From: a virus
Strand: one strand, 5' to 3'
Length of the DNA: 39,192 nt
Virus record (IMG/VR): IMGVR_UViG_3300026488_000006
Coordinates: 1-39,192 of that record
A program made the translations under genes and the position numbers. The notes below the pieces were generated by a model that searched no databases, was not told where the DNA came from, and was given only the letters and a program-made list of their open reading frames with translations. This document shows, one piece after another, positions 3,709-38,472 of the stretch (positions are counted from its first letter, which is position 1; every line of letters begins with the position of its first letter).

Positions 3709-4233
3709 GTCTTCACGTCATCGCAACGGGGCCCGGCGTTGCGGTGATGAAGACACATAGGTTTAAACTTGTCCGTTTTGTTACCCACTTCTGTTCCTAT
3801 GATGTGCTTATGTGGACGCCGAAAAAGGTAGGAGCGGGCTTTTTCGGTGTACAAAAGTGTTCTGAAGACAAAATCGCTTCTCACGAAGACACGTAATAAG
3901 GTGATGAAGACACAAAGGTTGACCTTATCACGGAAACAAGAGAGGGCTTTTTTGCCCATTTTAAAGGTAGGAGAATGCCGTTTCAATGTACAAAAGTGTT
4001 CTGAAGACAAAACCACTTCTCACGAAGACACGTAATTTCGGGCCCTGCTCCACTGACAGTAGTACTGCATCACCATAGGCCAGCATTACCAACGGCGGTG
4101 GCTCAACGCTTTGCTGGAAAAAATGTGCACATCTGGGGAATCAAGGTCAACCCCGTGTCTTCATCACTTTGTTACGTGTCTTCGTGAGAAGCGATTTTGT
4201 CTTCATCACCCCCATTACGTGTCTTCGTGAGAA
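3709..4233. repeat. Iteron array / putative replication origin or master regulatory region
   Basis: Two 49-bp direct repeats (3849-3897, 3988-4036); GTGATGAAGACAC at 3744-3756 and 3901-3913; inverted copies at 4155-4167, 4172-4209 and 4214-4233. At least 11 GAAGACA cores in about 525 bp, switching orientation around a 120-bp centre. Confidence 0.6.
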
Positions 4234-4335
4234 CCCAAAACAAGGGTATTTTTGGCTTATATGGTTAAACATGTGTGGTTTTACGGCGACTGTCTAAAAA
4301 CCGTAAAAAAGAAGTTAAGTCCCGGCGCTGGATGT

Positions 4336-5565
4336 CTAGAGCCACTGCCCCAACCGGTGGTTTTTGGCCACATCGCCAAGCTCCCGCTCAAACCTCCGCC
4401 TTATGATTTCGCAGTAGTCCGGATTCATCTCGATACCGACCCAACGCCTACCGAGCTTCTCCGCCACGACGAGAGTAGTCCCTGCTCCAGCAAACGGGTC
4501 GAGGACTACGCCGTCCTTCGGGCAAGCGACCTTAATTAAGAGCTCCGGGACGTCTGGCGGGAAGACCGCAAAGTGGGCGTCCTTGAACGGGCGGACGTTT
4601 ATTTGGATAACATCATTCGGGCGGACTTTGTAATCCCCCTCTCGTATCTTGCGGGCTATTCCTTCGTTGATTTCTCTAGAGCTCCTCGGATAAAGTTCGC
4701 CCTTGTTGTGAGGGCCAACTCTCCAGCGATACTTGGCTCGTTCCCGGGTCAATTCTGACGGTTCTGGTGCGACGGCTTTCCAATCAAAATAATACTTCGG
4801 CCTCTTCGTGAAGTGGAAGATGTACTCCCAGCTGTGGCTGAAGCGGTCTCTGACTGATTCGGGCATGGCGTTACCCTTCGTCGTCCTGTCTTTGTAAAAG
4901 TGCACTTTCTTTGCCCAGATTATTTTCTCCCGCAGAATCCAGCCCTCGTCGTAAACCATCTTGACGGCGAAGAGTTCAGGCACGAGAGCGAGGGACTTTT
5001 TCTTTAGTCCATCTGGCCACGCAACCTTTGGGACGTTGCTCCTCCCGTTCCACTTCGGGTCGTTGTCGTTGCCGAGACCATAACCGTGCCCACCACCAAC
5101 CCACGTGTCGTCAATGTTCACGAAGAGGCTCCCCGTCGGCTTGAGGACACGCTTGACCTCACGGAAAATCTCGACGAGGTGCTCGACAAACATCTGAGGA
5201 GTCGGCTCAAGGCCGAGCTGTCCATACCACGCCCCGCACTTCTTACAGATGAGGGCCGTCCGCTTGTTATACTTCTTTATCCGGGTCGTGCCCCTCGCTC
5301 CGACCACTTCGTCCTGCTTCCCGCGGACGTTGTTTCTGTTCTCGTGCTGAAGGCCAACTTCTTGCCCCACCCACTCGTGGTCGCAGTCCGGGTCGCCTCC
5401 AAAGACGGTGAACGTGGCGTCGCCGTAGTCCCTCTTGGCCCAATAGGGTGGAGAAGTAATTACCACATCCACGCTCTCATCAGGGAGATAGCGGAGCACT
5501 TCGAGGGCGTCTCCACAGTAGAGCCTGCCGAGCCGGGTTTCGAAGTAGGGCTCCATTCCAACCAT
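4336..5565 (-). CDS. DNA methyltransferase, beta-class amino-MTase (N6-adenine or N4-cytosine)
   Basis: Motif IV SPPYW near the N-terminus and motif I DPFAGAGTT near the C-terminus (order IV then I is the beta class). Track ORF 4336..5586; likely start is the ATG at 5565 after RBS GAGGTGGTG. Confidence 0.85.
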   Translation of the reverse strand: MVGMEPYFETRLGRLYCGDALEVLRYLPDESVDVVITSPPYWAKRDYGDATFTVFGGDPDCDHEWVGQEVGLQHENRNNVRGKQDEVVGARGTTRIKKYNKRTALICKKCGAWYGQLGLEPTPQMFVEHLVEIFREVKRVLKPTGSLFVNIDDTWVGGGHGYGLGNDNDPKWNGRSNVPKVAWPDGLKKKSLALVPELFAVKMVYDEGWILREKIIWAKKVHFYKDRTTKGNAMPESVRDRFSHSWEYIFHFTKRPKYYFDWKAVAPEPSELTRERAKYRWRVGPHNKGELYPRSSREINEGIARKIREGDYKVRPNDVIQINVRPFKDAHFAVFPPDVPELLIKVACPKDGVVLDPFAGAGTTLVVAEKLGRRWVGIEMNPDYCEIIRRRFERELGDVAKNHRLGQWL

Positions 5566-5576
5566 CCCGCACCACC

Positions 5577-6314
5577 TCACAGCCACCCCTTCTCGGCCTC
5601 AGCCTCCAGGAAGTCAAGAACCGAGCGGAGGCACTCCTTCAGCTTGGCAACCTTCGCCCGCCTCTGCTGGACCTCCTCGTCGCTCTCGCCGGCGCGCTTC
5701 AGCGTGAGCGTGTCGAGCATCAGCCTGAGGTACTTCGCGTGGGTCCTTGCCTCGTCGAGGCTGTCGCCGTGCACCTGGATGAGGGACTGTCCGTTGAACA
5801 GCACCGCGTCGGCGCCGAAGCGGTAGCCCGCGATGACCACCTCGTCCACGCCCCTGATACCGCTGTCCGGGTCGGCGAAGACCAGGAGCGCGACGGCGCG
5901 GTCGGTGCGGGTGTGTTCATCGAGCTCGACCGGCCCGTGACTACCGGTTAAGCGAAGGCGGTAGATGACTTTCCCGGGCACGGCCACGGCGACGGCCCTG
6001 TCGAGCTCGAACGCCGGGTAGCCGGCCAGCTGGAGCGCCCTGGCGAACACGCGGTTTGGCCCGAGGAGCGTCCAGCCGTACTCTGGGTCGCCCCACTCCT
6101 CGACGAGGCCGGACAGGGACCTTATGAGCTCCCCCAGCGCCTGCTTCGTGAGCGGTAGCCTGTTCTCCTGCCAAAGCGAGCGGAGCTTTTCGGCCAGCTC
6201 GGCCACGCTCTCGCTGTCGGCCACGGCGTCCGCTATGTCGTGGTAGAGCCGGACGAGCTCCGCCCTGTCGGGAATCACTATGTGGTCGAGCTCGTAGCGC
6301 GCCACCTCACGCAC
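5577..6314 (-). CDS. Hypothetical protein (245 aa) immediately upstream of and overlapping the methyltransferase
   Basis: Co-oriented, 3' end overlaps the MTase start; no convincing nuclease motif seen. Confidence 0.55.
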   Translation of the reverse strand: MREVARYELDHIVIPDRAELVRLYHDIADAVADSESVAELAEKLRSLWQENRLPLTKQALGELIRSLSGLVEEWGDPEYGWTLLGPNRVFARALQLAGYPAFELDRAVAVAVPGKVIYRLRLTGSHGPVELDEHTRTDRAVALLVFADPDSGIRGVDEVVIAGYRFGADAVLFNGQSLIQVHGDSLDEARTHAKYLRLMLDTLTLKRAGESDEEVQQRRAKVAKLKECLRSVLDFLEAEAEKGWL

Positions 6315-6405
6315 CTCCGCACCTGGCTTTTCTCTTCACGGCCCACTCTATGAGTGTAGCGCCGGCGTAAGCGAGAATCATGTCGGAGGATGGTGTCTTC
6401 ATGGC

Positions 6406-6573
6406 TCACCACACCTCCTCGACGCGGACGAGGGCGACTTGTTTGAAAGACCCGGTTTTCCCTATGAGTTCGGCCACGGTTCGGGCCTTATCGCTGTCGT
6501 CGTTGGCGCAGAGGATGCGGAGGTAGTCGCGCCCTTGGACTTCTTCGACGCCAAGGACCCAATACCGGGTCAC
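6406..6573 (-). CDS. Small hypothetical protein (55 aa)
   Basis: Not in the ORF track (<60 aa). GTG start two nt after the upstream stop; C-terminal codons GAGGAGGTGTGGTGA carry an RBS; protein-like composition. Confidence 0.35.
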   Translation of the reverse strand: MTRYWVLGVEEVQGRDYLRILCANDDSDKARTVAELIGKTGSFKQVALVRVEEVW

Positions 6574-6575
6574 GT

Positions 6576-6836
6576 TCACCACCTCACCGCGACCATTGTC
6601 CAGGTGGCGTTCTCGCCGAGCGCGACTTTGAAGTCGTAGCCGTTCTCTTTAAGCCATGTGATGGCCTTCTCCGCCGGGCCGTCGGCGGGCCCGCCTCTGA
6701 ACCACGCGAAGACTGTGCTTTTCTTTGGCGAGTAGCTGATGAGGTATGCTCCGAGCTCCTCAAGCTTTGCCACGAGGCGTCCAAAGTGGTAGTAGTCACC
6801 CGCCTTGAAGAAGCCCTTAGCTATCACCATCACCAC
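6576..6836 (-). CDS. Hypothetical protein (about 85 aa)
   Basis: RBS GGAGGTGGTG then ATG; stop overlaps the next start. Confidence 0.5.
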   Translation of the reverse strand: MVMVIAKGFFKAGDYYHFGRLVAKLEELGAYLISYSPKKSTVFAWFRGGPADGPAEKAITWLKENGYDFKVALGENATWTMVAVRW

Positions 6837-8643: not shown

Positions 8644-8749
8644 AGCTCACCCCCCTCATGAAAGAATAGCACAGGCCGGCGCGGTACTTCATAGCAGTAC
8701 CACCGGTGCTACTACGGCGCTGGGGCTTATAAGGATTGCCACCACAAAG

Positions 8750-9313: not shown

Positions 9314-9392
9314 GTGACATCACCAAGTACAACCTGACGTTTGGAATATTTAAGAATTGTCACCAGAATGTAAAGGAAAAGCTTGGCAAACG

Positions 9393-9539: not shown

Positions 9540-9549
9540 GCTCGCCACC

Positions 9550-10803: not shown

Positions 10804-10818
10804 CTCTCGTCACCTCGG

Positions 10819-11682: not shown

Positions 11683-11686
11683 CCCC

Positions 11687-27761: not shown

Positions 27762-27846
27762 GCCACCACCCCCTACTCGACCGCTCCCCGATGTTCGTAG
27801 TTAGGCGCTCGAAGTATAAACCATTTTCGCCGGAGCCACCGAGAAA

Positions 27847-27877: not shown

Positions 27878-28189
27878 GTGGTGATTAGCGTGCCGTCCCA
27901 CCGCTACCACAAAGCCCTTAACCGGCTCGTGCTCGGCGACGACTGCGAGCCCGTGAACCTCATCAAGGACGCACCCTACCGGCTCTTTCCCGGCAAAAAG
28001 CACCGGCAGTACTTCCACGACCGGGCCACGAACTTCTGGCTCGGCATTCTCCTTGGGCCGAAGGCCTTCCTTGCCGGTGAGCTCCACGACTGGCTGGATA
28101 GGGAGTTCATCGAGGACAGGGAAACGGGCCGGCTCGTCCCGCGAGAAAAGTGGATAACTAAGAGGCGCCGGCGAAAGAAGAGGCGTTAG
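27878..28189 (+). CDS. Hypothetical protein (103 aa) with strongly basic C-terminus (KRRRRKKRR)
   Basis: GTG start just downstream of the TATA-like box; stop overlaps the stop of the convergent gene (TTAG). Confidence 0.5.
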   Translation: MVISVPSHRYHKALNRLVLGDDCEPVNLIKDAPYRLFPGKKHRQYFHDRATNFWLGILLGPKAFLAGELHDWLDREFIEDRETGRLVPREKWITKRRRRKKRR

Positions 28190-28428
28190 CCTTCCTTTTT
28201 CCGGGGCCGGATGATGGCCACGCGCCCCGGCAGGAGGAAAACCTCCAGCTCCTCGCCCGGCTCGTAGAAGCCGAACGGGATAAATACTGCGATGCCCCTG
28301 TCGTTGAACTTCGACGCCTTCCGGATGAGCCTCACACCCTCTTTGTCCTTGATTTTGACCTGCCGAGCGAGCTTCGGCTTCGGTCCTTTCACGATTACCT
28401 TGTCCTGACGAACCTCGACCTCCGTCAT
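28186..28428 (-). CDS. Small basic hypothetical protein (80 aa), possible DNA-binding protein
   Basis: Track ORF 28186..28632; ATG at 28428 after RBS GGGGTGGTGGGA; the longer track ORF runs into promoter DNA. Confidence 0.5.
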   Translation of the reverse strand: MTEVEVRQDKVIVKGPKPKLARQVKIKDKEGVRLIRKASKFNDRGIAVFIPFGFYEPGEELEVFLLPGRVAIIRPRKKEG

Positions 28429-28527
28429 TCCCACCACCCCGATGATGTTTTGTTTAAACGAGTATATAAAGGATTCCCCGGCCGAGCTCGGGAGCGAGCC
28501 GGAGCGATTACTACTGCCCGACGTGCC

Positions 28528-28563
28528 GTTGCAAAAAAGTTGTAAAAACGGCAGATTTTTAAG
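28528..28563 (+). promoter_or_regulatory. Conserved early-promoter element (GTTGCAAAAAAGTTGTAAAAACGGCAG plus TATA-like ATTTTTAAGG)
   Basis: 24 of 27 nt identical to 29887-29913; same distance (57-58 nt) from motif end to the start codon. Confidence 0.5.
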
Positions 28564-28611
28564 GTCTAAACTGCTAATATATTTTGAAGAACGCAAAGGT
28601 GGTGGTGAAAA

Positions 28612-28800
28612 ATGGCGAAGGAAAGAATACACCTCGGATGGGCTTCTGTGGACGTGGAGAGGTACGCAGTGAAGGGAAAAGACGGTAGGTGGTATATCAG
28701 ACAGCAGAGCAACCGTGCGGGAGACCCTGGGTACATGATAGCGGTTGTCAGGACGAGGGAAGAAGTCGAAAAGTACAGGATTGGTGAGGTGAGAGCATGA
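28612..28800 (+). CDS. Small hypothetical protein (62 aa)
   Basis: RBS AGGTGGTGGTGA before ATG; first gene of the plus-strand operon. Confidence 0.55.
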   Translation: MAKERIHLGWASVDVERYAVKGKDGRWYIRQQSNRAGDPGYMIAVVRTREEVEKYRIGEVRA

Positions 28801-29102
28801 GCGTCGAGCGCGTGACGGACGCCCTTGTGGATGCCTACCAGCTTCTCGACCTCTCCGAGCGCCTCATCGAGGAGCTCGAAAGCGCCCCGCTCTCCGAGCT
28901 CCCGCGCCTACTTCAGTTTTTGAAAAAGAACATCCGCGACGCGAAGGCGCTGATAAACGACGCCGAGGCCGAGCTCGACAAGACGGTCAGGGAGCTCGAT
29001 GAGGCAGAGGTGAAAGACCTACTCGTTGATATGGAGGTTGAAGAAACCAGGCGCTACGAGGCGCTCGCGAGGGAAGCTGACCGCGCGGGGGTGATGTTAT
29101 GA
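28797..29102 (+). CDS. Hypothetical acidic coiled-coil protein (101 aa)
   Basis: RBS GGTGAGGTGAGAGC; ATGA start/stop overlap. Confidence 0.55.
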   Translation: MSVERVTDALVDAYQLLDLSERLIEELESAPLSELPRLLQFLKKNIRDAKALINDAEAELDKTVRELDEAEVKDLLVDMEVEETRRYEALAREADRAGVML

Positions 29103-29335
29103 AGCTGGTCATAACCATAGCCGACGAGCTGGACGAGTGGTTTTCAAAAATGAGCTTCAAAATCGAGAAGGACGGCAAAACGATACTTAACGACGAGATG
29201 ACCAACTGGGACAACTCAGCGTTTGAGGAATGGTTGGTGGATATGTTTGTGGAGGTTCTGAAGAACTTAAAAGAAGTGGATGAATGGGCCTTTAAGAAGG
29301 CCCTTCAGCGCTTCGTCGGAGGTGATGGACAATGA
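29099..29335 (+). CDS. Hypothetical protein (78 aa)
   Basis: RBS GGGGGTGATG; ATGA overlap. Confidence 0.55.
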   Translation: MKLVITIADELDEWFSKMSFKIEKDGKTILNDEMTNWDNSAFEEWLVDMFVEVLKNLKEVDEWAFKKALQRFVGGDGQ

Positions 29336-29535
29336 AGGTCACGAAAGTTGAGCGCTTTAAGAGGACCTCACGGGTCTGGTTCGACGACGGCACAATCGCG
29401 ATAATCTACGACCTCGGCGGGAAGGACTGGGCGAGCGTCATCACGGCGGACAAAAAAGACATCACGGCGACGCAGAGGGGGCGCGCCTACCTGGCTGAGG
29501 CATACCGCGCCCTAGCGGAGGAGGTGGGCGTATGA
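29332..29535 (+). CDS. Hypothetical protein (67 aa)
   Basis: RBS GGAGGTGATGG; ATGA overlap. Confidence 0.55.
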   Translation: MKVTKVERFKRTSRVWFDDGTIAIIYDLGGKDWASVITADKKDITATQRGRAYLAEAYRALAEEVGV

Positions 29536-29687
29536 GGTGGGTGGTCATCTCCCGCGACCGCGAGCTCAAGGTCGAGACAGCGACGAACCAAAAGGAGGCA
29601 TTATTTAGGCAGAAGCTCCACCGCAACGCCCTCGCCCTACCAGTCCGCGAGGTCCCAACTCTTATCCACCTCCTCCAGCACCTTTGA
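29532..29687 (+). CDS. Small hypothetical protein (51 aa)
   Basis: Not in the ORF track. RBS GGAGGTGGG before ATG; ATGA overlap with upstream stop; followed by an oligo-T tract. Confidence 0.4.
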   Translation: MRWVVISRDRELKVETATNQKEALFRQKLHRNALALPVREVPTLIHLLQHL

Positions 29688-29688
29688 A

Positions 29689-29747
29689 CCTTCTTTTTTT
29701 CGCCCGCTTTATAACCCGGTTATAATTTCTCACAACCGGGTTTTGCC
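29689..29747 (+). terminator. Terminator-like element: oligo-T plus palindrome TTATAACCCGGTTATAA and AACCGGGTTTTGCC
   Basis: T9 run immediately after the operon's last stop; about 80 percent identical to 30326-30382. Confidence 0.45.
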
Positions 29748-29886
29748 TGGGGGGCTACATATATACTACATATAATTCCACGCCCCAAGTTTCACCACGA
29801 TAACTTAGTTTTAGCAGTTGATAACTCGGTTATGTCGCGTGAGTTTCTGACGCGACTCCGAGGCGCTCTCAGACGCGAGAACTTTG

Positions 29887-29932
29887 TTGCAAAAAAGTTT
29901 CAAAAACGGAAGGTTTATATATGTGTTTAAAC
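29887..29932 (+). promoter_or_regulatory. Conserved early-promoter element, second copy (GTTGCAAAAAAGTTTCAAAAACGGAAG plus TATA-like GTTTATATATG and GTTTAAAC)
   Basis: See 28528-28563. Confidence 0.5.
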
Positions 29933-29969
29933 ATAAGAGAGAACGAAGAATGTGATAGAGGTGGTCGTG

Positions 29970-30323
29970 ATGGAGAAGGTGAGAATCATACCGCACAGGT
30001 TTGAGGACAAGGAAGAGTACATCAACGCCCTCGTCGGGACCTGGAAGCGCAACTGGGAAATCTTCAAGAAGGAGCACCCGCGCGTCGCTAAGCGCTTTGA
30101 GGAGGCAGTCGAGAAGTACGGCGGTATGGATACTATGCTTAGGAAGTTCGCAGAAGACATAGCTTTTGACAAGCGGAGGACGAGGGTTCAGGTTCCCCTC
30201 ACATGCAGAAGATACTTATACAATGACTACGGTATGAGCATCAAGTTCTACGACGACGGCGACATCGTGTATGCGAGGGGCTCAATCAGCTCAAGCGTCC
30301 GCGACATCCTGGGTGTTTGCTGA
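29970..30323 (+). CDS. Hypothetical protein (about 117 aa)
   Basis: Track ORF 29952..30323; ATG at 29970 after RBS GAGGTGG. Confidence 0.55.
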   Translation: MEKVRIIPHRFEDKEEYINALVGTWKRNWEIFKKEHPRVAKRFEEAVEKYGGMDTMLRKFAEDIAFDKRRTRVQVPLTCRRYLYNDYGMSIKFYDDGDIVYARGSISSSVRDILGVC

Positions 30324-30325: not shown

Positions 30326-30382
30326 CTTCTTTTTTCGCCCGCCTTATAACTCGGTTATAGCTTTTCTTAACTCGGTTTTGCC
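30326..30382 (+). terminator. Terminator-like element, second copy: oligo-T plus palindrome TTATAACTCGGTTATAG and AACTCGGTTTTGCC
   Basis: Immediately after the stop of 29970..30323; homologous to 29689-29747. Confidence 0.45.
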
Positions 30383-30512
30383 AAGGAAGGACACGTAACC
30401 CTCACCCCCAACTCTATGTTTAAACTCCCGCAACCCCGACCTTTACAGATGCAAAACCTTAAATACCCCTTTTGCAAAAATCTTATACGAACAACGTCAA
30501 GGGGGTGGCACT

Positions 30513-31598
30513 GTGGACGACGAGGAAAAGCGCGAGAAGGCCGGGGAAAACCGCCCCGACGACTTCAGCGAGCTCGACGACCTTTTAGAAGCCCTTATGG
30601 GCGCCGAGGAGGTGGCAGAAGACAGCCAAAGCGAGGAACCACCCGACGACGCCAAAGAACCACCCGCCGAACCCAAACACAGAAAGTACGCCCCAAACCC
30701 GTACAGCAAAATCAAAGACATCCCCGAAGACTTCCTCACGTTCCTCCTTGAGACGGACGCGAAGTGGGCAAAGCGCAAGCTGTGGCGCGGAATCATCAGA
30801 AGCATCTACGAGAACCCGCGCGCGCACTCGACAGACATTGCCAAGCTCCTCGACACGACGCCCTCCACCGTCATGCGCACCGCCGAGCGATATAGGGCTA
30901 TGTGGAACGAGCTTCGCGAGGACTACGAGGAGTGGAAGCGGAAGCTTGAGGAAGGCGTCCCGGGCGAGTTAGAGTCGAAGCTCCCACCAACCAAAGCCCC
31001 TTCCCCACAGCCGGCCCCGGAGCCGGCGCCGAAGAAGCGTGGGGGCTCGAAGAGCTCTACGGGTGGCGAGAAAGAAGAAAAAATCCCGCAGAAGCTCTAC
31101 GAGTTCACCAAGAGCACGACGACCTTCAAAGAGATTGATAAGACGCTTAGCGAAGTGCTCGGTGCTCAGTTCCACGATACGGCGGTTAGAAAGGAAGTTT
31201 ACGCCCGGCTCGGCGAACTGCTGATTTTCAGCCTCCTCCAGCTCGGTGTGGTCGAGCGTGATAAAATAGTCGCCTACTCTGAACAGCTCTCGACCGACCC
31301 GGACAGGCTCTACGAGTACGTCAAAAACCAGCTCGACGCCGTTCTCCGCTTAACCGACGCCGAGACGCTCCAGCGCGTCTGGGTCGAGCTAACCGCGCTC
31401 AGGCGCCAGGTCAGGGCACTCGAAGCGACCGCCGACATGCTCAGCGACACGCTAAAAGAGTACGAGGACGCCATCCGGTTCCTCATGGGTCTTCTCACGC
31501 GCGACCAGCTCGAAAAGTTCTCCGCGTATGTGTTTATGAAGGAGTTTATGAAGCAGTACGCGCCCCTGCAGGGCGCCGTTCCTGGAGGTGGTAGATGA
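30513..31598 (+). CDS. Hypothetical protein (361 aa) with acidic N-terminus and a helix-turn-helix-like segment; possible transcription regulator
   Basis: RBS GGGGGTGG before GTG; segment RAHSTDIAKLLDTTPSTVMRTAERYRAMWNE resembles an HTH; C-terminal codons form the next gene's RBS. Confidence 0.55.
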   Translation: MDDEEKREKAGENRPDDFSELDDLLEALMGAEEVAEDSQSEEPPDDAKEPPAEPKHRKYAPNPYSKIKDIPEDFLTFLLETDAKWAKRKLWRGIIRSIYENPRAHSTDIAKLLDTTPSTVMRTAERYRAMWNELREDYEEWKRKLEEGVPGELESKLPPTKAPSPQPAPEPAPKKRGGSKSSTGGEKEEKIPQKLYEFTKSTTTFKEIDKTLSEVLGAQFHDTAVRKEVYARLGELLIFSLLQLGVVERDKIVAYSEQLSTDPDRLYEYVKNQLDAVLRLTDAETLQRVWVELTALRRQVRALEATADMLSDTLKEYEDAIRFLMGLLTRDQLEKFSAYVFMKEFMKQYAPLQGAVPGGGR

Positions 31599-32779
31599 TG
31601 GAAGCCGTGCAGGTCGAAAAGACCGCCGAGGAGGCGCCGACCGAGGTGCCGAAGCTCGAAGAGTTTCTCCCCGTCGGAGAAGCCCAGCCCGCCGAGGAAA
31701 ACGCCCCAGAGCTCCCGAAAGAGGTGCAGAACCAGATTGCGACGACAATCGTCCAGGGCCAGATGGCCGGCCTAAGCGAGGAGGAGATAAAGGAGAAAAT
31801 CAAGGAGCGCTACGGCCTAAGCGACGAGGAAGCTGAGCTCACGATGCAGATGATAATGAAGTACCTCGACCGCTCCCAGAGACAGGAATACGAGCTCAAG
31901 AAGACCGCACTCGGAATGATGCCGGCGCTCGCGGAGACTATGGCGCAGAGCCAGAACCCGCTCGCCCCGCTGATTATGCAACGCCTCATCGAGATGGCCG
32001 GATTCAAGGAGGAGAAAGACGACTTCGTGAAGGACATCGTGGAGGCGAAAAAGCAACTCTACAAGGTCAAGATGATAAGCGAGGTGCTCAAGGACGACGA
32101 GGGCAAAAAGTCCGGCTCGTTCGACGCGCTCATCCTTGAGATGATACGTCAGATGGAGCGGGAGAAGGCCGAGGCCCAAAAGATGCTCTACCAGCTCCTC
32201 CTTGAGGAGCGGAACAGGAAGGACAGTGGGGAGACCGAGGCGCTAAAAGAGGCACTCGTGAAGTTCATAGACGCGATAGACCAGCGCCTCGAAATGATGA
32301 TGGAGATGATACAGGAACAGAAGAGCACGCCGGTCAACGGGGGCCCGCGCTACAAGGACCCGCTTGAGGAGCTTTTGGAGCACCAGCAGAAGCTCAACCA
32401 GCTCCTTGAGACCCTCGAAAAGGCCGGGCTCGTGAAGCGCAACGATGACGAGTCCAGCCTCCTTGAGGCTCAGCTAAAGCTCAAGGAGTTCGAGCTCAAG
32501 CAGAAGGAAGTCGAGGCGAAGCAAATATTCTACTCGAAGCTCGCCGAGGCGCTGAGCAACCCACAGACGCTCCGGGTCATCTTCGACGGGCTCAGAGGCA
32601 TCTTCGCCGGGCTCCTCGGTAGGGCGCCGAGCCCACAGACCTTCAACAACGCCCTCGCTCAAGCACCTGTCCAGGCGCCGGCCCCCACGCCGGCCCCCGT
32701 CCCCAAGCCAGAACCGCCGGCGGACATTCCGAGCCTTGAGGAGTTCGTCCAGCAGGCCGGGGGTGAGGGTGGTGGCTGA
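31595..32779 (+). CDS. Coiled-coil rich hypothetical protein (394 aa)
   Basis: RBS GGAGGTGGT; ATGA overlap; E/K/Q/L-rich heptad-like sequence; Pro/Ala-rich region near the C-terminus. Confidence 0.6.
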   Translation: MMEAVQVEKTAEEAPTEVPKLEEFLPVGEAQPAEENAPELPKEVQNQIATTIVQGQMAGLSEEEIKEKIKERYGLSDEEAELTMQMIMKYLDRSQRQEYELKKTALGMMPALAETMAQSQNPLAPLIMQRLIEMAGFKEEKDDFVKDIVEAKKQLYKVKMISEVLKDDEGKKSGSFDALILEMIRQMEREKAEAQKMLYQLLLEERNRKDSGETEALKEALVKFIDAIDQRLEMMMEMIQEQKSTPVNGGPRYKDPLEELLEHQQKLNQLLETLEKAGLVKRNDDESSLLEAQLKLKEFELKQKEVEAKQIFYSKLAEALSNPQTLRVIFDGLRGIFAGLLGRAPSPQTFNNALAQAPVQAPAPTPAPVPKPEPPADIPSLEEFVQQAGGEGGG

Positions 32780-32987
32780 ACCGAACCCCAAGACAGTCGC
32801 AGTCTTCCGCTGGCTCGCCCAGACGCTCCGGGCGGGCTACAACAACCCCGCCGTGCTTTTGAAGGCGAAAGATGAGATAAAGAAAAACGAAAAGGTGATT
32901 GAGGGGGCGGTGAGGGATGCCATTCGGCCCGAATTTGAGGAATACGTCGAGCTCGTTAAGTCCCTCCTCGGCGGAGGCTCAGCTTGA
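32772..32987 (+). CDS. Small hypothetical protein (about 71 aa)
   Basis: Track ORF 32736..32987 begins at a TTG; an in-frame GTG at 32769/32772 follows RBS GGTGAGGGTG and is the more likely start. Confidence 0.45.
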   Translation: MAEPNPKTVAVFRWLAQTLRAGYNNPAVLLKAKDEIKKNEKVIEGAVRDAIRPEFEEYVELVKSLLGGGSA

Positions 32988-33306
32988 CAAAGCGCTTGAG
33001 GAGTACGACCGACTCTTTCAGGAGGAGTTCGAGCGGAAGAAGGCGATTTGGCTCAAGATGACGCAGGAACAGCGCGACCAGTACACCCGCACCGTGCTCG
33101 GCCGGATACTCAAGAAGGCCAAGGAAAACCCGCTTGAAGGACTAAAAGCCTTTGCCCAGCTCATAGGCTCGCCAGAGGGTGTTTTGGTGTGGGCCAACAT
33201 CTGGAAGCCGGAGTACTGGCCTTACGTGGCGGAAGTTACCGGGGAGGCCTACAAGCTGATGGTGAAGTTCGCCGTGCTCAGTGAGGTCGGGGGTGGGCAG
33301 AAGTGA
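32917..33306 (+). CDS. Hypothetical protein (up to 129 aa), start uncertain
   Basis: Overlaps the previous ORF by about 70 nt in the +1 frame; alternative start at ATG 33058 has a weak RBS; end is well defined (GTGA overlap with the next gene). Confidence 0.4.
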   Translation: MPFGPNLRNTSSSLSPSSAEAQLDKALEEYDRLFQEEFERKKAIWLKMTQEQRDQYTRTVLGRILKKAKENPLEGLKAFAQLIGSPEGVLVWANIWKPEYWPYVAEVTGEAYKLMVKFAVLSEVGGGQK

Positions 33307-33713
33307 GCCTCGAACTCATGCGCCGATGGGTCGCCTCGCTCCCGCCGGCGGAGCGGTCGCTCCCACTCCTCCACGTGGGCGAGGCCTTCTACACACCATT
33401 GCAAGCGCTCCGAGAAGTTGAAAAAGGTACAACGATTGGTGAAAAACTACAACAGCTCGTAGAGCAAGGGCGCTTTGGGACGGACTTAAACGCCCTTGCA
33501 AAGGCCCGCCTCCAGCTCCTCCTTGAGCGGGCGAAGGGCTACGAGATAGCCTCGCTCAGCGGGATAAGCATTCCCACTGACAAGCTCGCCAAGCTCGTGG
33601 CTCAAGGCGACCTATCAAATCCACTCATCCAAGAGCTCGCGGAGGCCGACCTCCTTCTCGCCCAACAGGCGCTCAAGCTCGGTAAAAAGCTCGCTGGAGG
33701 TGGTGGGAAATGA
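33303..33713 (+). CDS. Hypothetical protein (136 aa)
   Basis: RBS GGGGGTGGGCAG before GTG; GTGA overlap; Gly-rich C-terminal codons form the next RBS. Confidence 0.55.
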   Translation: MSLELMRRWVASLPPAERSLPLLHVGEAFYTPLQALREVEKGTTIGEKLQQLVEQGRFGTDLNALAKARLQLLLERAKGYEIASLSGISIPTDKLAKLVAQGDLSNPLIQELAEADLLLAQQALKLGKKLAGGGGK

Positions 33714-33997
33714 CGCCGGCTGAGCTCCTCGCTCAGGTTGAGGCGCTCCTCGACGCGGGGCGCTACAACGAGGCCCTTCGGCTCCTCGCCTCGGATAGGG
33801 CACTCTACCAGCGCGTCACTCAGGGCGTCATCAGGGCCCTTGAGAGCGACCCCCATGGCATCATCACGGACATAAACGGCAACGTGTGGCGCACGAGCGA
33901 CCTAATCCGCTACGTCAGAGCCGGCCACTGGTTCGGCCCGCTGTTCAACCTGCTCCGCTCCGAGGTCGAGCTCCTCCGGCGCCAGCTCGGGGGGTGA
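33710..33997 (+). CDS. Hypothetical protein (95 aa)
   Basis: RBS GGAGGTGGTGGG; ATGA overlap. Confidence 0.55.
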   Translation: MTPAELLAQVEALLDAGRYNEALRLLASDRALYQRVTQGVIRALESDPHGIITDINGNVWRTSDLIRYVRAGHWFGPLFNLLRSEVELLRRQLGG

Positions 33998-34767
33998 CGC
34001 CCTTGCTTTACATTTTGCCGACCACGCACGGTGTTGACGTGCCGAGCACGATAATGAAGAACGTCGCGCCCCAGATTGACGAGAGCCCGATAATCCTCTG
34101 GGACGGCGAAGCGACCGCCGAGAACGCCAGGAAGGCCATCCTTGGGCACAACCCGCCGTACATTTTCACGACCGGCCATGGGCTCCCGTGCGCCACCACG
34201 CTCCAGGACTTACAGCCGTTCATCAGCCTCGCAGAGCCCCAGATGAGCCCCTACTGTAAGGCCGAGCGCAACCTCGACATCGTGAAGGGTCGCGTCTGGC
34301 ACGTCCACTCGTGCTGGTGCGGGCTCCAACTCGCACAGGAGATGGTCAAAAGGGGCGCCTGGGCGGTCTTCGCCCACGACAAGGAGTTTTTATTCCTTAT
34401 GCCCAAGACGGGCAAGATTGACATCATTACCGCCACGCCGTTTCTCGCAGAGTTCACCGTTGACAGTGCAATGCTCAGCGGAATGACCGCCGGCGAGGCG
34501 CAGAAGGCAAGGGAAAAGGCCTATGACCATTGGCTCGACTACTTCCTCAAGGGCGAAGGGCAGAAGCTCGACCCGGCCCCGCTCGTGGCGCGCATCGTCC
34601 TCGCCGACAAGATGATTAGCAAGCTCTACGGCGACCCGACAGCAACTGTAACAAAGCCCGGACCAAGAAAGACCTTCCAGCTCGGCCTCCCTCTCGATAG
34701 GCCAGTGGGCGGTTCCGCCATTTGGCTCGCGCTCCCCGTGGCACTCCTGATGTTTGCAAGGGGGTGA
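33994..34767 (+). CDS. Hypothetical Cys/His-containing protein (about 257 aa) with C-terminal hydrophobic anchor
   Basis: Track ORF 33886..34767; in-frame GTG at 33994 overlaps the upstream stop (GTGA); conserved-looking His/Cys residues (HGLPCATT, HSCWCG); C-terminal AIWLALPVALLMF. Confidence 0.5.
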   Translation: MTPLLYILPTTHGVDVPSTIMKNVAPQIDESPIILWDGEATAENARKAILGHNPPYIFTTGHGLPCATTLQDLQPFISLAEPQMSPYCKAERNLDIVKGRVWHVHSCWCGLQLAQEMVKRGAWAVFAHDKEFLFLMPKTGKIDIITATPFLAEFTVDSAMLSGMTAGEAQKAREKAYDHWLDYFLKGEGQKLDPAPLVARIVLADKMISKLYGDPTATVTKPGPRKTFQLGLPLDRPVGGSAIWLALPVALLMFARG

Positions 34768-34771
34768 GCCT

Positions 34772-34939
34772 ATGGCGAGGCGCGACACCACCGCAATCCT
34801 CAAACGGCTAAAAAAGCGCCTCGACCGGGCGAGAAAAGCCCTCCTCGTTGAGGACAGCGCCACGGCGCTGGAGCACGTGGATTGGGCAATCCTTGAGCTC
34901 GAAGAGCTCGCCGAAGAAAGTGCGGAGGTGGGAGAGTGA
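34772..34939 (+). CDS. Small hypothetical protein (about 55 aa)
   Basis: Track ORF 34754..34939; ATG at 34772 after RBS GGGGGTGAG. Confidence 0.45.
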   Translation: MARRDTTAILKRLKKRLDRARKALLVEDSATALEHVDWAILELEELAEESAEVGE

Positions 34940-35295
34940 TACCGCCGAGCTGGGCCTACGGGATAAGTACGGGAAGCCTGCTAACGATGCTACTCGGCGT
35001 CCTCCTCGGGGCGACGCTCGGGACCATCATCGGCACCGAGATTGCTTACCGGCGCACCGAGCGGTGGCTACGAAAGCTCCTAACAGACAAAGAGTTTCAG
35101 AACCTCGCCGTCGGCTGGCTCAAGCGGACGGCTCAGCAGTTCGAGAACGAGTACGTGAAACCGAAAATCGAAAGCGAGGAGTTCCGCGAGCTCGTCAGGA
35201 AGGCGAAAGAACAGGCAATGCAGGCGCTCCTCGGGCCGGGCGAGCCCCCAACCGACGTGCCGAGCCTTGATGACTTCGTAGGGGGTGAGGGGTGA
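34936..35295 (+). CDS. Membrane protein (119 aa) with N-terminal TM helix
   Basis: RBS GGAGGTGGGAGA before GTG; hydrophobic N-terminus LLTMLLGVLLGATLGTIIG. Confidence 0.55.
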   Translation: MIPPSWAYGISTGSLLTMLLGVLLGATLGTIIGTEIAYRRTERWLRKLLTDKEFQNLAVGWLKRTAQQFENEYVKPKIESEEFRELVRKAKEQAMQALLGPGEPPTDVPSLDDFVGGEG

Positions 35296-35507
35296 TGGAC
35301 GTTGCCTTGTTAGCCGAGGTGTTGACGGCCATCCTGGCCGTCGTGAGCTTCCTCCTTGGAGCGAAGTGGAGGAAGGCAAAAGCCGTGCTCCGCGACCTCG
35401 CGAAGGCCCTCGAAGACACGTACCAAGCCCTCGAAGACGACAAGCTGACAAAGGAAGAGCTCAAGCAGTTGATAAAAGACTGGAAAAAAGTGCTGGAGAA
35501 CGTTTAG
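35295..35507 (+). CDS. Small membrane protein (about 70 aa), TM helix plus coiled coil
   Basis: ATG at 35295 after RBS GGGGGTGAGGGGTG; last gene of the plus operon. Confidence 0.5.
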   Translation: MDVALLAEVLTAILAVVSFLLGAKWRKAKAVLRDLAKALEDTYQALEDDKLTKEELKQLIKDWKKVLENV

Positions 35508-35788
35508 GCCCAGCCCCCGCCGTTTGGGCCGGGCCACTCCGGGCGGAGCCGTACTGGCTCCACCGCCCCTCTTTTTAGGAGCACGCCCCAGACGCCAGGG
35601 GGCATAGCGTTGGCCGTCACGAGGTCGCCCTTTCTGAACGGCCCGCGCGGGCCGTCCGGCGTCATAATGCCTTCTGGAAAGTCCATGAGGAACCGGTAGG
35701 CCCACTGCGGGGCCGGGCGCTCAGTTCTCGCCGTCCTGGCCTTCGGCCTCGCCTTCACCCAGCCGAGGAGGCTCGCCTGTGCCACCAC
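35504..35788 (-). CDS. Hypothetical protein (94 aa), last gene of the origin-spanning minus operon
   Basis: GTG start just after the upstream stop; its stop overlaps the stop of the convergent plus-strand gene. Confidence 0.45.
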   Translation of the reverse strand: MVAQASLLGWVKARPKARTARTERPAPQWAYRFLMDFPEGIMTPDGPRGPFRKGDLVTANAMPPGVWGVLLKRGAVEPVRLRPEWPGPNGGGWA

Positions 35789-35791
35789 CCA

Positions 35792-35956
35792 TCACCCCCT
35801 CTCTCCGCTCTGCTCGCCGGGCGTGAAAAGAACGAAAGGCCGAAAGTCGGGCGCCGGGAAGGTGATTACTGCCCCGCAGTGCGGGCAGTGAACCGGGCGG
35901 TGGATGTCCTCGACCTCGAAGGGCTGTCCGCAGTAAGGACAACGGACGCGCATCAT
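35792..35956 (-). CDS. Zinc-ribbon protein (about 54 aa)
   Basis: Track ORF 35792..36001; ATG at 35956 after RBS GGAGGGGGT; two CxxC pairs (CPYCG ... CPHCG). Confidence 0.5.
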   Translation of the reverse strand: MMRVRCPYCGQPFEVEDIHRPVHCPHCGAVITFPAPDFRPFVLFTPGEQSGERG

Positions 35957-36249
35957 TTTGCCGACCCCCTCCACCTCATCATCCTCCGTAGCTTTCTCCA
36001 AACAGGGATTGTTTCTCTACTCATATAGTTTCTTTTAGCGAGCCACTCTTTGAACTTCTCGTCACACTCCTCGTCTTCATCAAGGAAGTCGAGTAGTTGA
36101 AGGACTTCCTTATATCTGCCGTACTTCCGCCACACGGCCCACAAGACTTGAGCTCCGAGCCATACCATGAATGCCACAAGCGCCCACGCAAGCGCCGTTA
36201 GCACGGCGAAGCCGGTGTAGGTCCAGATAGTTTCAATGCTCACGGCCAT
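35953..36249 (-). CDS. Small membrane protein (about 98 aa)
   Basis: Track ORF 35953..36324; ATG at 36249 inside a 19-bp sequence also found at the dpdA-like start; hydrophobic helices. Confidence 0.5.
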   Translation of the reverse strand: MAVSIETIWTYTGFAVLTALAWALVAFMVWLGAQVLWAVWRKYGRYKEVLQLLDFLDEDEECDEKFKEWLAKRNYMSRETIPVWRKLRRMMRWRGSAK

Positions 36250-36320
36250 CACGCTCCTTTTTTCTTTCAGAGTGCACATAGTGGAACCACCATATGTAAT
36301 ACTCCTCCGTGATTCCCATT

Positions 36321-37130
36321 TCACACATTCGAAATCACCTCAGTAAGGCTTTTCTGACGGGAGTTTTGGAACCCATCTAATAACCGAACCCAATGGAGTA
36401 CTCTCTGTCGTATCTGCATCCAGATAGGCTTAGAGTTCTTCACGCGGTCAATACCATACCTATATGCCAAACTGTCCGCCGAGTAAAGAGCTTCTCTCAC
36501 GTCAGGATACCTGAGCACTCCAAACTTTACTCCAAAAGCGTGCAACTTAACCCTCCTTGGTGTCGCTTCTCTTATTGCGAGTATGTATCTCCGTATTTGC
36601 GGTTCTTGCCCGCGCCGGCACATTGTGCCGAGGCCGAGAAGTTCAGTCAGGAGACCATGCTCCTTCATATAATCGAGCATCCAGAGATAGTCGTCAAGCG
36701 CCCACCCCTGCAATACTGCCACAAAGTGCTTCTTAAGTTCAGGATACTGGTCGTCAATTAGATTCTGAATTACAATCTGGTTTTCTATCGTTTTCATCTG
36801 ATTTTCTCGAACCGTGCGACCCCACTTCTTGCGGACTTCCGGTTCGCACGGATAATCCCTATTCGCAAAGAGGACATTCTCAAAGCGTCCAGAATTGAGC
36901 TGACGAAGGACAAACTCAAGGTAGCGCTCGTGTGGGTCCGGGTATTCTTGCATGCGGTAAAAAAAGCTGAAGCCTCCGCTGTCAATGAACAACCAGCTTG
37001 TGTTCCTAGGTGGGGTTCTAACTCTGGAAGCATAGTTAATCATAACATTGAACTTGCGCGGAGCGAGGCTTTCAAATGCCTTTTTTGCTGAACCATCCCC
37101 CACACCAAAAAAGAAACTAAACACGGCCAT
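36321..37130 (-). CDS. TGT-family transglycosylase, DpdA-like (7-deazaguanine DNA transglycosylase candidate)
   Basis: Motif WLFIDSGGFSFF matches the tRNA-guanine transglycosylase active-site motif (E. coli Tgt ILTDSGGFQVF); downstream blocks align loosely with TGT (VAVLQG, LLGLGTM, YSADSL); no CxCxxC...H zinc site. Track ORF 36321..37271 starts at a TTG; ATG at 37130 follows RBS AGGAAGGAGCGTG. Confidence 0.7.
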   Translation of the reverse strand: MAVFSFFFGVGDGSAKKAFESLAPRKFNVMINYASRVRTPPRNTSWLFIDSGGFSFFYRMQEYPDPHERYLEFVLRQLNSGRFENVLFANRDYPCEPEVRKKWGRTVRENQMKTIENQIVIQNLIDDQYPELKKHFVAVLQGWALDDYLWMLDYMKEHGLLTELLGLGTMCRRGQEPQIRRYILAIREATPRRVKLHAFGVKFGVLRYPDVREALYSADSLAYRYGIDRVKNSKPIWMQIRQRVLHWVRLLDGFQNSRQKSLTEVISNV

Positions 37131-37296
37131 CACGCTCCTTCCTAAGTGTTGCAATAAAGCACTCGTCGAAAAACTCACAAGCTTCACAGAGCGAGTCGCC
37201 CTGAAAGTCTCCAAAGCAAGGCGGTAGTTCCTCAGCGCCCTCATTGTCGAATTCGCCCCAAACCTCTCCAAAAACCGTTATGAGAACCTTAGCCAC
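37117..37296 (-). CDS. Small Cys-rich protein (59 aa), possible metal-binding
   Basis: Not in the ORF track. GTG start after RBS GGGGGTGACGGGGC, directly after the upstream stop; C-x11-C-x2-C-x5-C; overlaps the dpdA-like start by 14 nt in another frame. Confidence 0.35.
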   Translation of the reverse strand: MAKVLITVFGEVWGEFDNEGAEELPPCFGDFQGDSLCEACEFFDECFIATLRKERDGRV

Positions 37297-37310
37297 GCCC
37301 CGTCACCCCC

Positions 37311-37547
37311 TTAAACTTCCACCTCGGCCTTTCGGCCGGCGGGCTCGCCGAGGCGGACGACGGCGTAGCCATGCTTTGCAAGGGCCTTAATGATTTTGAG
37401 AGCCTCGGCGTCGTCGCTGAGTACGGCGAGCAAGATGTCCTTGCCGTCCGGCAGGCGCCCGTGGAGCTCGCCACAGCAGTACTCGACGTGATGGAGCTCG
37501 TAAACGCCGTAGGTGTTGTCGAGGCCGTCAATCACGGCGACCCTCAT
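37311..37547 (-). CDS. Hypothetical protein (78 aa) with HHVEYCCGELHG motif
   Basis: ORF tiled in operon next to the dpdA-like gene. Confidence 0.5.
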   Translation of the reverse strand: MRVAVIDGLDNTYGVYELHHVEYCCGELHGRLPDGKDILLAVLSDDAEALKIIKALAKHGYAVVRLGEPAGRKAEVEV

Positions 37548-37577
37548 GCTTCCACCTCCAAAAATTTAAGAAAGGGT

Positions 37578-37880
37578 CTAATCGGCCTCATTCTCTTGGA
37601 AGTATCTTCTCGTGTCATCATCGAAGAGGCTGATATCTTCTTCCTTATAGAAAAACATTGCTAAAGCTCTGGACTTTAGGAGGTTGTTGAGGTCGTCCTT
37701 TCCAAAAACATTCCTTGATACGGCAAAACTTGTCTTATAGTATCCTTTCTTTTTAGATGGTGCGCTCCAGTCACCAACAGGGTCCTCTGCAATTACTACG
37801 TACTTAAAACCGGCCTCCTTGTGCTTCTGGAGGTAGTCTATAACCTCATCAATAGTTGCAATCATTGTCGCCATTCTCAT
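37578..37880 (-). CDS. Hypothetical protein (100 aa), AT-richer gene
   Basis: ORF with noticeably lower GC than the genome average. Confidence 0.5.
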   Translation of the reverse strand: MRMATMIATIDEVIDYLQKHKEAGFKYVVIAEDPVGDWSAPSKKKGYYKTSFAVSRNVFGKDDLNNLLKSRALAMFFYKEEDISLFDDDTRRYFQENEAD

Positions 37881-37891
37881 ACACCCCCGAC

Positions 37892-38395
37892 TTATCCTTC
37901 AACCATTATCCAACGCTCCCGGCGGGCGTACTGCGGGAGCATGACGCGAACCCACCACTCGACGAAGGCCCAAGGCACGTGGTAGCCCTTTCCCGGGACG
38001 TAGAAGTCGCGGGGCTCGTAGCCGTTGCGGTAGCACCACCACTTAAAGTCGTTGCGGAGCGTGTATTCGCCGACGACGTGACGGTAGCGCCTCATCAGCT
38101 CGCTGAGCTTCACGCGCCGGCCCTCGCAGAGCGCATACTCGGTCACGAGGTCAAAGTGCCTATCTGGCTCAGTCGGCGTCCGCTCGTCAACCAGCATCTC
38201 CTCGTAGCGCACCTTTGCCCAGAAGTGGTTCTTGAGCCAGTGCTTTTCGAGGGCGTCAATGTAGTGGTAGGCCGTGTGCACCTGGTAGCCTCTGACGAGC
38301 CACAGGTAGGCAAAGTAGGGGCCGGCCCGGACGAGCCAGCCGTGGCGGAGGGTTAGTCGCTTAAACTTACCCATAGACACCACCCTGCGAGCCAC
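37892..38395 (-). CDS. Trp/Tyr-rich hypothetical protein (about 160 aa)
   Basis: RBS GGAGGTGG upstream; true start probably the ATG of MGKFKRL. Confidence 0.5.
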   Translation of the reverse strand: MARRVVSMGKFKRLTLRHGWLVRAGPYFAYLWLVRGYQVHTAYHYIDALEKHWLKNHFWAKVRYEEMLVDERTPTEPDRHFDLVTEYALCEGRRVKLSELMRRYRHVVGEYTLRNDFKWWCYRNGYEPRDFYVPGKGYHVPWAFVEWWVRVMLPQYARRERWIMVEG

Positions 38396-38472
38396 CTCCT
38401 TCGGTAGAACTTATGTTTAAACTTATTAAAAGCTTTGCGGTTGGGGAATGCAAAGGTAGGATTTTGCAAAAG

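Follow-up and report, generated by a model that had tools for sequence, protein, structure and literature searches.

We propose that the palindrome GTTTAAAC, which recurs in the non-coding DNA of a 39,192-nt metagenomic sequence (IMG/VR record IMGVR_UViG_3300026488_000006, positions 1 to 39,192; hereinafter the window), is a lineage-specific operator recognized by a dimeric regulator that the element itself probably encodes. We assign this reading a probability of about 0.55. The window represents an uncultivated element, which we class as a circular, virus-like one of the Thermococcales type. The operator reading is favored by the conjunction of three observations: the word holds a fixed slot next to the TATA boxes of several promoters; it is kept in a strain variant even though a neighboring spacer has diverged; and in relatives that share the promoter scaffold, the slot is filled by different words that are partly palindromic.

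An intergenic excess of the palindrome

Exactly five copies of GTTTAAAC are found in the whole window, at 3761, 28452, 29925, 30418 and 38415, with no further copy on either strand. The gene calls of public assemblies of the same genome, taken together with an open reading frame map made in this analysis, place 5/5 of them in non-coding DNA, which amounts to ~2.4–2.9 kb of 39,065 bp (6–7.5% of the genome). A prior sequence-only reading of the window had reported these positions and their intergenic or promoter setting, both of which hold. It had also put the chance expectation below one copy, and dinucleotide shuffles of the whole window bear this out with a mean of 0.33 and a maximum of 2, at least five copies being reached in 0 of 100. 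Further, that reading had named the AT-richness of the intergenic DNA, whose GC content of 43–50% makes it AT-richer than the genome, as the factor that might make the count unremarkable. When the intergenic segments were shuffled one by one, which keeps both the AT-richness and the dinucleotides of each segment, the mean was 0.14 and the maximum 3, with at least five copies in 0 of 5000 shuffles; hence, intergenic AT-richness does not explain the count. Markov models of orders 0–3 trained on the intergenic DNA likewise expect 0.04–0.19 copies. A Poisson estimate from the mean of 0.14 gives ~4e-7 per word, or ~0.01 after correction over the 32,896 reverse-complement-collapsed 8-mers, and the intergenic excess is roughly 35-fold.

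The exact copies are accompanied by two or three one-mismatch copies, all intergenic. An extended word, TATGTTTAAAC, is present at 30415 (+), 38412 (+) and 29925–29935 (−), that is, in three copies versus 0.02 expected; the threefold occurrence of (T)ATGTTTAAAC in the sequence-only reading is correct if both strands are read and incorrect on one strand only. Within the 36.5 kb of coding sequence, synonymous-codon and codon-order shuffles yield expectations of just 0.12 and 0.17 copies, respectively, with P(0) = 0.88 and 0.85, so that the zero coding copies are uninformative. Thus, the signal is one of intergenic excess and not of coding deficit.

A slot between the TATA box and the start

Three of the sites share a common placement relative to the promoters. 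The copy at 28452..28459 (site 2) lies 3 bp 3′ of the predicted TATA box TTTATATA (28463..28470, minus strand) in the leftward promoter of a gene for an 80-aa orphan protein, at about −19..−12 from the predicted start; the minus strand here runs from TTTATATA-ctc-GTTTAAAC through 23 nt, with GGGGTGGTGGGA among them, to the ATG of the 80-aa gene. The copy at 29925..29932 (site 3) similarly lies 3 bp 3′ of the TATA box of the rightward promoter P2, at about −20..−13 from a predicted start at GAAG (29945), with the plus strand reading TTTATATA-tgt-GTTTAAAC, then 37 nt, and then the ATG of a 117-aa gene (29970–30323). The TTTATATA-N3-GTTTAAAC units of these two sites stand on opposite strands as a 23-nt inverted repeat (I1) with one arm at 29914–29936 and the other 1.4 kb away. 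The copy at 38415..38422 (site 5) abuts a TTTTAATA(A) box (38424–38431, minus strand) of a leftward promoter; the minus strand reads TTTTAATAA-GTTTAAAC-ATAAG, ahead of an operon with a 160-aa gene (37892–38374) as its first member.

In a fourth promoter, the rightward P1 that opposes the 80-aa gene, the same slot is taken by the one-mismatch copy GTCTAAAC (28564..28571, plus strand), directly after the TATA box, giving TTTTTAAG-GTCTAAAC ahead of the operon 28612–29687; this word is identical in the strain variant L012. Both P1 (28529..28563, plus strand) and P2 (29887..29921, plus strand) display the presumed early-promoter scaffold of the whole virus family, with TTGCAAAAAAGTTGTAAAAACGGCAG followed by the TATA box TTTTTAAG (28556–28563) in the former, and TTGCAAAAAAGTTTCAAAAACGGAAGG followed by the TATA box TTTATATA (29914–29921) in the latter. 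In sum, three promoters have GTTTAAAC 0–3 bp 3′ of the TATA box, the one-mismatch copy being likewise placed in the fourth, and relative to the predicted starts the word spans about −21..−12, with the TATA box on one side and the A/T-rich −10 element on the other. Thermococcus promoters have a TATA box at −30..−20, an A/T-rich element near −10 and a pyrimidine–purine step at the start (PMC5316973). Under this geometry, a count of 30 nt from the first T of the box leads to the conserved GAAG, where the starts are predicted; for the promoters described here they would fall at about 28440 (−), 28586 (+), 29945 (+), 30489 (+) and 38401 (−).

The two other copies are differently situated. The one at 30418..30425 (site 4) is 33 bp upstream of the TTAAATAC box (30459–30466) in the promoter of an operon headed by a gene for a 361-aa protein (30513–35295), with its ATA flank inverted relative to that of the site at 29925. 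The one at 3761..3768 (site 1) is inside an 822-bp non-coding region (3514–4335), 5 bp from a 19-pair hairpin (3708–3755), and on the minus strand follows CAAAACGGACAA, a sequence similar to the part of the scaffold immediately upstream of the family TATA boxes. The same region contains the one-mismatch copy GGTTAAAC (4263..4270, plus strand) after TTATAT, which is the word that replaces GTTTAAAC in the relative L023. All five copies of GTTTAAAC are exact over the 8 bp and palindromic, while their flanks differ. The promoters of the large unidirectional cluster (for example, upstream of 8643, 9313, 21442 and 27761) have TATA boxes and no GTTTAAAC-type word.

Conservation in a strain variant and replacement in relatives

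Our comparison set comprises about seven independent genomes. The closest is the co-occurring strain variant L012/L013, whose homologue of the 80-aa protein is 97% identical and in which GTTTAAAC is retained at the three sites that the contig spans, even though identity to the window drops to about half in the spacer beside the leftward TATA box. The promoters and the 361-aa operon are 96–100% identical between the two. The early small genes are swapped in the variant, where products of 111, 64 and 108 aa take the place of those of 62, 101, 78 and 67 aa, and a 104-aa gene has been gained; compared with it, window 28186–29700 is a hypervariable early/accessory cassette, of the kind mined for anti-defense genes in other archaeal viruses. 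We also considered whether GTTTAAAC marks a boundary for module exchange, and rejected this idea as the divergence in L012 begins beyond the TATA box and not at the palindrome.

The more distant relatives L016–L021 and L023–L026 have no GTTTAAAC. They share the scaffold TTGCAAAAAA-nn-T-nn-CAAAAACG-n-AAG, followed by GTTTATA(TA), and in the alignment the TATA box is succeeded by ~25 variable nt and then by TGAAGAA, GGAGGTG and ATG, with GTTTAAAC falling in the variable stretch. This stretch is repeated between the promoters of one genome and differs between genomes. As a side observation, an upstream element, TTGCAAAAAAnnTnnCAAAAACGnnAG, stands directly before the TATA box in the window (28529–28555 and 29887–29913) and in L016, L018, L019, L021 and L023–L027.

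The words in the slot can be followed across several of these relatives. In L023, with a neighboring protein 62% identical to that of the window, GGTTAAAC comes directly after the TATA box, and a second, inverted GGTTAAAC is located upstream of the promoter of a 364-aa gene, in the same intergenic region as the window site at 30418; the pair has the relative orientation of the window sites 3 and 4. By shuffling, P = 0.011 for the same one-mismatch word to occur twice within 570 intergenic nt. In the L024/L025/L109 group, GTTGCTAC, GTTGCGAC and ATTGCGAC are found exactly at TATA+3, followed by ATAAG as in the window; the slot word of this group takes the form GTTGCNAC, with L024 (2333–4112) and L025 carrying GTTGCKAC and L109 presenting the perfect palindrome GTTGCAAC at TATA+3, again followed by ATAAG. 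Slot words of the form GTTnnAAC are seen in two lineages, that of the window and the L024 group. L021 (8048–9649) instead has words conforming to ACGNCGT: three rightward TATA boxes are followed by ACGTCGT, and the box of a divergent small gene by ACGACGT (plus-strand reading). In L018 and L026, TTGAAG...CTACATAAGA is repeated on both arms of the divergent promoters. The sequence ACATAAG recurs at about −13..−7 in several genomes, the window included. Since the word is repeated within a genome and differs between genomes, the slot between the TATA box and the start can be said to carry a genome-specific and often palindromic word. A metagenome scan with the promoter scaffold returned, among the matches listed, mostly chance hits together with about five loci of the family, three of them already known.

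A candidate for the binding protein

The best candidate for the protein that would bind GTTTAAAC is, in our estimate, the 80-aa orphan (28186..28428, minus strand; called in public assemblies), which is encoded divergently from the early operon and has GTTTAAAC in its gene's own promoter. Its putative regulatory role is suggested by the position of the gene, the restriction of the protein to this lineage and a faint family similarity. As regards the restriction, a single-sequence search of 5.8 billion proteins recovered its own lineage alone (the 97% variant). Its sole remote homologue in tblastn searches of the fetched relatives is a 56-aa protein of L024, with 39% identity across 41 residues (E about 2e-5, the database searched being small). 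This protein too is encoded divergently from an early promoter, and L024 belongs to the other GTTnnAAC lineage. A gene on the contig P0024 is in a non-divergent context and added nothing.

The small family that includes the 80-aa protein, a 57-aa paralogue and the L024 protein shows a faint likeness to AbrB/MazE proteins, weak at each step and consistent across them. Against the Pfam family MazE_antitoxin (PF04014), the 80-aa protein scores 11.5 bits (E = 0.31) and its L024 homologue 17.8 bits (E = 0.0033), both below the curated cut-off of 24.7 bits. A profile of the family run against the PDB has MazE/PemI as its top three hits at non-significant E-values of 0.5–0.8; run against a large protein database, it retrieved 11 small unnamed proteins, all from this virus group. 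Two AlphaFold models are all-beta and of low confidence (pLDDT 59–60), and two Foldseek searches gave no match at E ≤ 0.001. Being an obligate dimer, the swapped-hairpin fold of AbrB/MazE may escape a model built as a monomer. A phmmer search of the PDB with the 80-, 117- and 57-aa proteins found nothing meaningful. Other proteins are less probable determinants of the specificity. The 62-aa protein encoded first in the early operon is 89% identical in L021, which has a different word; the 117-aa, 67-aa and 51-aa proteins, also restricted to this lineage, are weaker candidates for the binder.

Weighing the operator against the alternatives

Briefly, we advance the following plausible mechanism. 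A dimeric protein bound in the slot between the TATA box and the start would let the TATA-binding protein (TBP) and transcription factor B (TFB) bind, and would block either the recruitment of RNA polymerase (RNAP) or the opening of the promoter. The early and accessory genes, along with the gene of the regulator itself, might thereby be repressed. Blocking of polymerase recruitment or promoter opening is the way in which Phr, LrpA and MDR1, repressors from Thermococcales and other archaea, act. What one would look for in such an operator is largely what we find: the same sequence stands in several promoter regions beyond chance; it abuts or overlaps core elements at 28452, 29925, 38415 and, as the variant, at 28564, and not at 30418 and 3761; and the word differs between relatives that keep the same core promoter. 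With this, the suggestion of a regulator-binding site in the sequence-only reading gains from the promoter slot, the conservation in the strain variant and the other words in the relatives, its remaining part, the binding and the binder, being an inference on our side too.

Several considerations weigh against the operator. The two sites just named, 30418 and 3761, lie outside the core promoter, and the upstream GGTTAAAC of L023 is 65 nt from its TATA box versus 33 nt for the corresponding site in the window. The word is pure A/T except for its end bases and contains TTTAAA, and could act as a basal element. The conservation in L012 spans the whole promoter and not the 8-mer alone, and a comparison set of about seven independent genomes is small. 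The AbrB/MazE assignment falls under every curated threshold, with models of low confidence and fold searches devoid of a significant match, and a different viral protein, or a factor of the host, could be the binder. Finally, the element is uncultivated, and its starts, expression and protein binding are predicted from the sequence.

The A/T-rich composition bears most directly on the possibility that GTTTAAAC is a basal promoter element, namely a second or bidirectional TATA-like box or an easily melted stretch read by the host TBP, TFB and RNAP. Consistent with this, the near-copy GTATAAAC at 27814 doubles, when read on the opposite strand, as the GTTTATAC TATA box of a 1679-aa gene; at 3761, a CAAAACGG-like element is followed by GTTTAAAC in the place that a TATA box would have; an A/T-rich element near −10 is a feature of Thermococcus promoters (PMC5316973); and the last bases of GTTTAAAC overlap the recurrent ACATAAG of several relatives. 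However, the same scaffold and spacing are seen in relatives with G/C-containing words (GTTGCAAC, GTTGCGAC) or unrelated sequence in the slot, from which it follows that A/T-richness is not required there; neither the presence of the word nor its composition is kept at the same position in the homologous promoters of the relatives. Moreover, five copies remain exact and palindromic amid differing flanks, three sites already have a good TATA box 0–3 bp upstream, and both copies in L023 have changed to the same variant word. A basal element is, hence, a reading that we consider unlikely. A site for a host transcription factor, for instance a SurR-like winged-helix dimer at the GTT/AAC half-sites that couples early expression to host physiology, strikes us as quite improbable. 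Those half-sites are indeed the ones of the SurR box, GTTn3AAC or GTTn3AACn5GTT, and GTTn2AACn6GTT is listed as a mutated long SurR motif (PMC12162507); the site at 3761 reads GTTTAAAC-n6-GTT, and that at 30418, on the minus strand, GTTTAAAC-n5-GTT. Nevertheless, the spacing is n2 and not n3 in 5/5 copies, the lone intergenic GTTn3AAC (29817) is unrelated to the sites, and we rejected a SurR box as such on account of the spacer of 2 bp instead of 3 bp. The word also varies between viruses that presumably share host genera, for which a virus-encoded factor is the better fit, and a scan of genome contigs for TATA-N3-GTTTAAAC (TTTATATANNNGTTTAAAC) gave, among the matches listed, chance hits in AT-rich bacteria and none in Thermococcales, and so lends the idea no support.

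The sequence-only reading had alternatively entertained a site depleted from coding DNA by restriction avoidance. GTTTAAAC is a known 8-bp restriction site of the PmeI/MssI type, and the genome does encode an N6/N4 DNA methyltransferase and a DpdA-like DNA-modification gene, such that the target might have been eliminated from coding sequence while being tolerated in the intergenic DNA or shielded there by the methyltransferase. We nonetheless rejected avoidance, which finds no support in the codon shuffles, where zero coding copies are the expected outcome; genome-wide, the word is enriched and not depleted, and avoidance can yield neither the ~35-fold intergenic excess nor a fixed position beside TATA boxes, leaving any restriction-related explanation barely credible. 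That the copies have no function, being products of chance or relics of promoter duplication in an AT-rich background, is only a little less far-fetched. P1 and P2 are paralogous copies of one scaffold and the intergenic DNA is AT-richer than the genome, yet composition-matched shuffles never reach five copies and the paralogue P1 itself holds a mismatched copy. Further, apart from the 8-mer (plus ATA), little is common to the promoters at 28452 and 38415 and the sites at 30418 and 3761, which duplication thus fails to explain.

The genome carrying the sites

An exact 127-nt direct repeat terminates the window (1–127 and 39066–39192; an overlap of the MEGAHIT type), and the junction of its ends is spanned by a public assembly of the same sequence; the window is therefore a complete circular genome of 39,065 bp. 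The same genome is present in vent-type metagenome assemblies (ENA ERZ27262635, JGI 3300026382 and 3300026484, and SRR7968106/9). Its archaeal features are TTTATATA-type TATA boxes, GGTGGTG/GGAGGTG ribosome-binding sites and T-run terminators. Homologues of the 361-aa protein (30513–31598), 37–98% identical, occur on metagenomic contigs of 12–34 kb, two of the homologues being labeled ‘MAG: Thermococcus sp.’ and several of the contigs coming from the Reysenbach vent data sets, as used in a recent study of the Thermococcales virome (PMC12934983).

Few of the encoded proteins can be named. The window carries genes for a UvrD-like helicase (138–1802), the N6/N4 DNA methyltransferase (4336–5565, minus strand) and the DpdA-like protein (36321–37244, minus strand; Pfam PF23859, E = 1.9e-20). 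DpdA is a family of DNA transglycosylases linked to 7-deazaguanine in DNA, and its co-occurrence with the methyltransferase suggests that the virus modifies its own DNA; the operon with the DpdA-like gene is among those preceded by GTTTAAAC, at site 5. The remaining annotations are DUF7336, a weak tail-fiber match and a weak HTH_24 match, and apart from these few, searches of ~45 proteins against Pfam, PHROGs and NCBIfam annotated almost nothing. No match was obtained among deposited phages by megablast with 12 kb, or among phages and plasmids by tblastn with a 393-aa protein; an IMG/VR scan with a 417-aa protein returned no relatives. Rfam gave no matches over the whole window, and a tRNA search of the window found none. 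A scan for bacterial sigma-70 promoters and terminators reported 0 promoters, its consensus being bacterial and irrelevant to an archaeal element.

The 822-bp region around site 1 looks like a replication origin: it contains seven copies of the iteron GAAGACAC, a 74-nt direct repeat and 51-nt inverted repeats of 96% identity, besides the 19-pair hairpin (z = −3.4), and adjoins a module of genes for 57-aa, 197-aa and 317-aa proteins and the UvrD-like helicase. L026 has a syntenic module with a 600-bp non-coding leader. The 57-aa gene (3340..3513, minus strand) encodes the paralogue of the 80-aa protein noted above. Upstream of its TATA box are GTTAAAC(R)GAA(S)TG boxes (window 3573–3579 and 3613–3619, minus strand), which are kept in L026 (at 387 and 830), whose 57-aa protein is just 33% identical. 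The word GTTAAAC in these boxes is one T shorter than GTTTAAAC, hinting at a paralogous pair of protein and site; genome-wide, it has 5 copies versus 3.0 expected, which is not significant alone.

Some other intergenic elements were observed alongside. The palindrome TTTTGCAAAA is found near other promoters (window 21525, 30470 and 38462). The most repeated intergenic 8-mer is TTGCAAAA, with eight copies; as it is kept across viruses whose proteins are only ~40% identical, it may be a strong TFB-recognition element (BRE) or upstream activating sequence (UAS), or a site for a conserved factor. A second palindrome, TTATAAC-YCG-GTTATAA, lies at 29709–29725 (perfect over 17 bp) and 30344–30360, and partially at 29820–29834; it is found where two intergenic regions begin, right behind T-run terminators and a CGCCCGC box. 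The half-site-like AACYCGGGTTTTGCC is placed ~30 nt 3′ of it. Variants occur in L012.

Relation to known systems and significance

Virus-specific sequences around strong early promoters are known from archaeal viruses, as in the Aca8 regulon (PMC11065993), and viral regulators such as F55 and C68 (PMC5569661) and Aca8 (PMC11065993) also bind their own promoters. The closest parallel is the Aca8 regulon of SIRV2 with its analogues: in both cases, a sequence next to a strong core promoter recurs at several promoters within one viral genome, the putative regulator's among them, and changes from one related virus to another, with small, fast-evolving early genes under control, which is presumed in our case (PMC11065993). 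The differences are that the host order here is the Thermococcales (Euryarchaeota) and not the Sulfolobales; that the element takes the form of a compact 8-bp palindrome, exact in sequence and set between TATA box and start; and that, unlike the winged-helix Aca8, the candidate is a small orphan, predicted to be all-beta, with a faint AbrB/MazE similarity and known from sequence only.

Among other regulators, F55 of SSV1 is likewise a small dimeric viral repressor acting at short repeats in early promoters and its own, which overlap core elements in a divergent layout (PMC5569661). It is, however, a ribbon-helix-helix protein that recognizes tandem direct repeats (ATAGATAG) overlapping the BRE and the start, as against a single inverted-repeat 8-mer 3′ of the TATA box in the window, where, unlike in SSV1, we see neither an integrase nor evidence of lysogeny. 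C68 of pSSVx is a very small, beta-rich protein of the AbrB/MazE type from an archaeal mobile element that binds the intergenic region by its own gene (PMC5569661), as we suppose for our candidate; its site, TATG(C/GG)TTTTC, is not a palindrome, and its supposed likeness to the 80-aa protein is one of type and not of sequence comparison. The SurR box shares GTT/AAC half-sites in a palindrome, and SurR activates or represses depending on position relative to the TATA box (PMC12162507), but it is a redox-sensing winged-helix protein of the host with a spacer of 3 bp versus 2 bp here, where the word varies between related viruses. Lastly, the GTC motif of SIRV1/SIRV2 is a virus-specific conserved word immediately 3′ of the TATA box (Kessler et al. 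2004, via PMC5569661); it is 3 bp long and occurs in the majority of promoters there, as opposed to 8 bp in a subset of promoters, presumably early ones, here.

Thus, a regulatory logic already established for viruses of Sulfolobales (PMC11065993, PMC5569661) is encountered in a newly recognized group of Thermococcales viruses. Viruses of Thermococcales are known nearly all from metagenomes only (PMC12934983), and the text of that study, in which the words ‘promoter’ and ‘repressor’ appear nowhere, does not address their gene control. Our analysis yields a defined 8-bp operator candidate and a short list of candidates for its binder, while the family-wide scaffold TTGCAAAAAAnnTnnCAAAAACGnnAG-TATA-(about 25 nt)-GAAG marks presumed early and accessory genes, which in Sulfolobales viruses are of the kind mined as anti-defense genes (PMC11065993). 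Going further, we tentatively raise the prospect, which we regard as rather doubtful at present, that the small AbrB/MazE-like orphans and the 8-bp post-TATA palindromes of the GTTnnAAC type are matched, rapidly diversifying repressor–operator pairs, with GTTTAAAC in the window, GGTTAAAC in L023 and GTTGCAAC in the L024 group. They might then form an immunity-like switch of early genes that defines specificity groups among newly discovered Thermococcales viruses, with the pair of the 57-aa protein and GTTAAAC(R)GAA serving the origin module. If such pairing is true, it would provide orthogonal, thermostable regulatory parts for Thermococcus genetics, and with the matched repressor–operator pairs, a regulatory circuit would have been described in these viruses for the first time.

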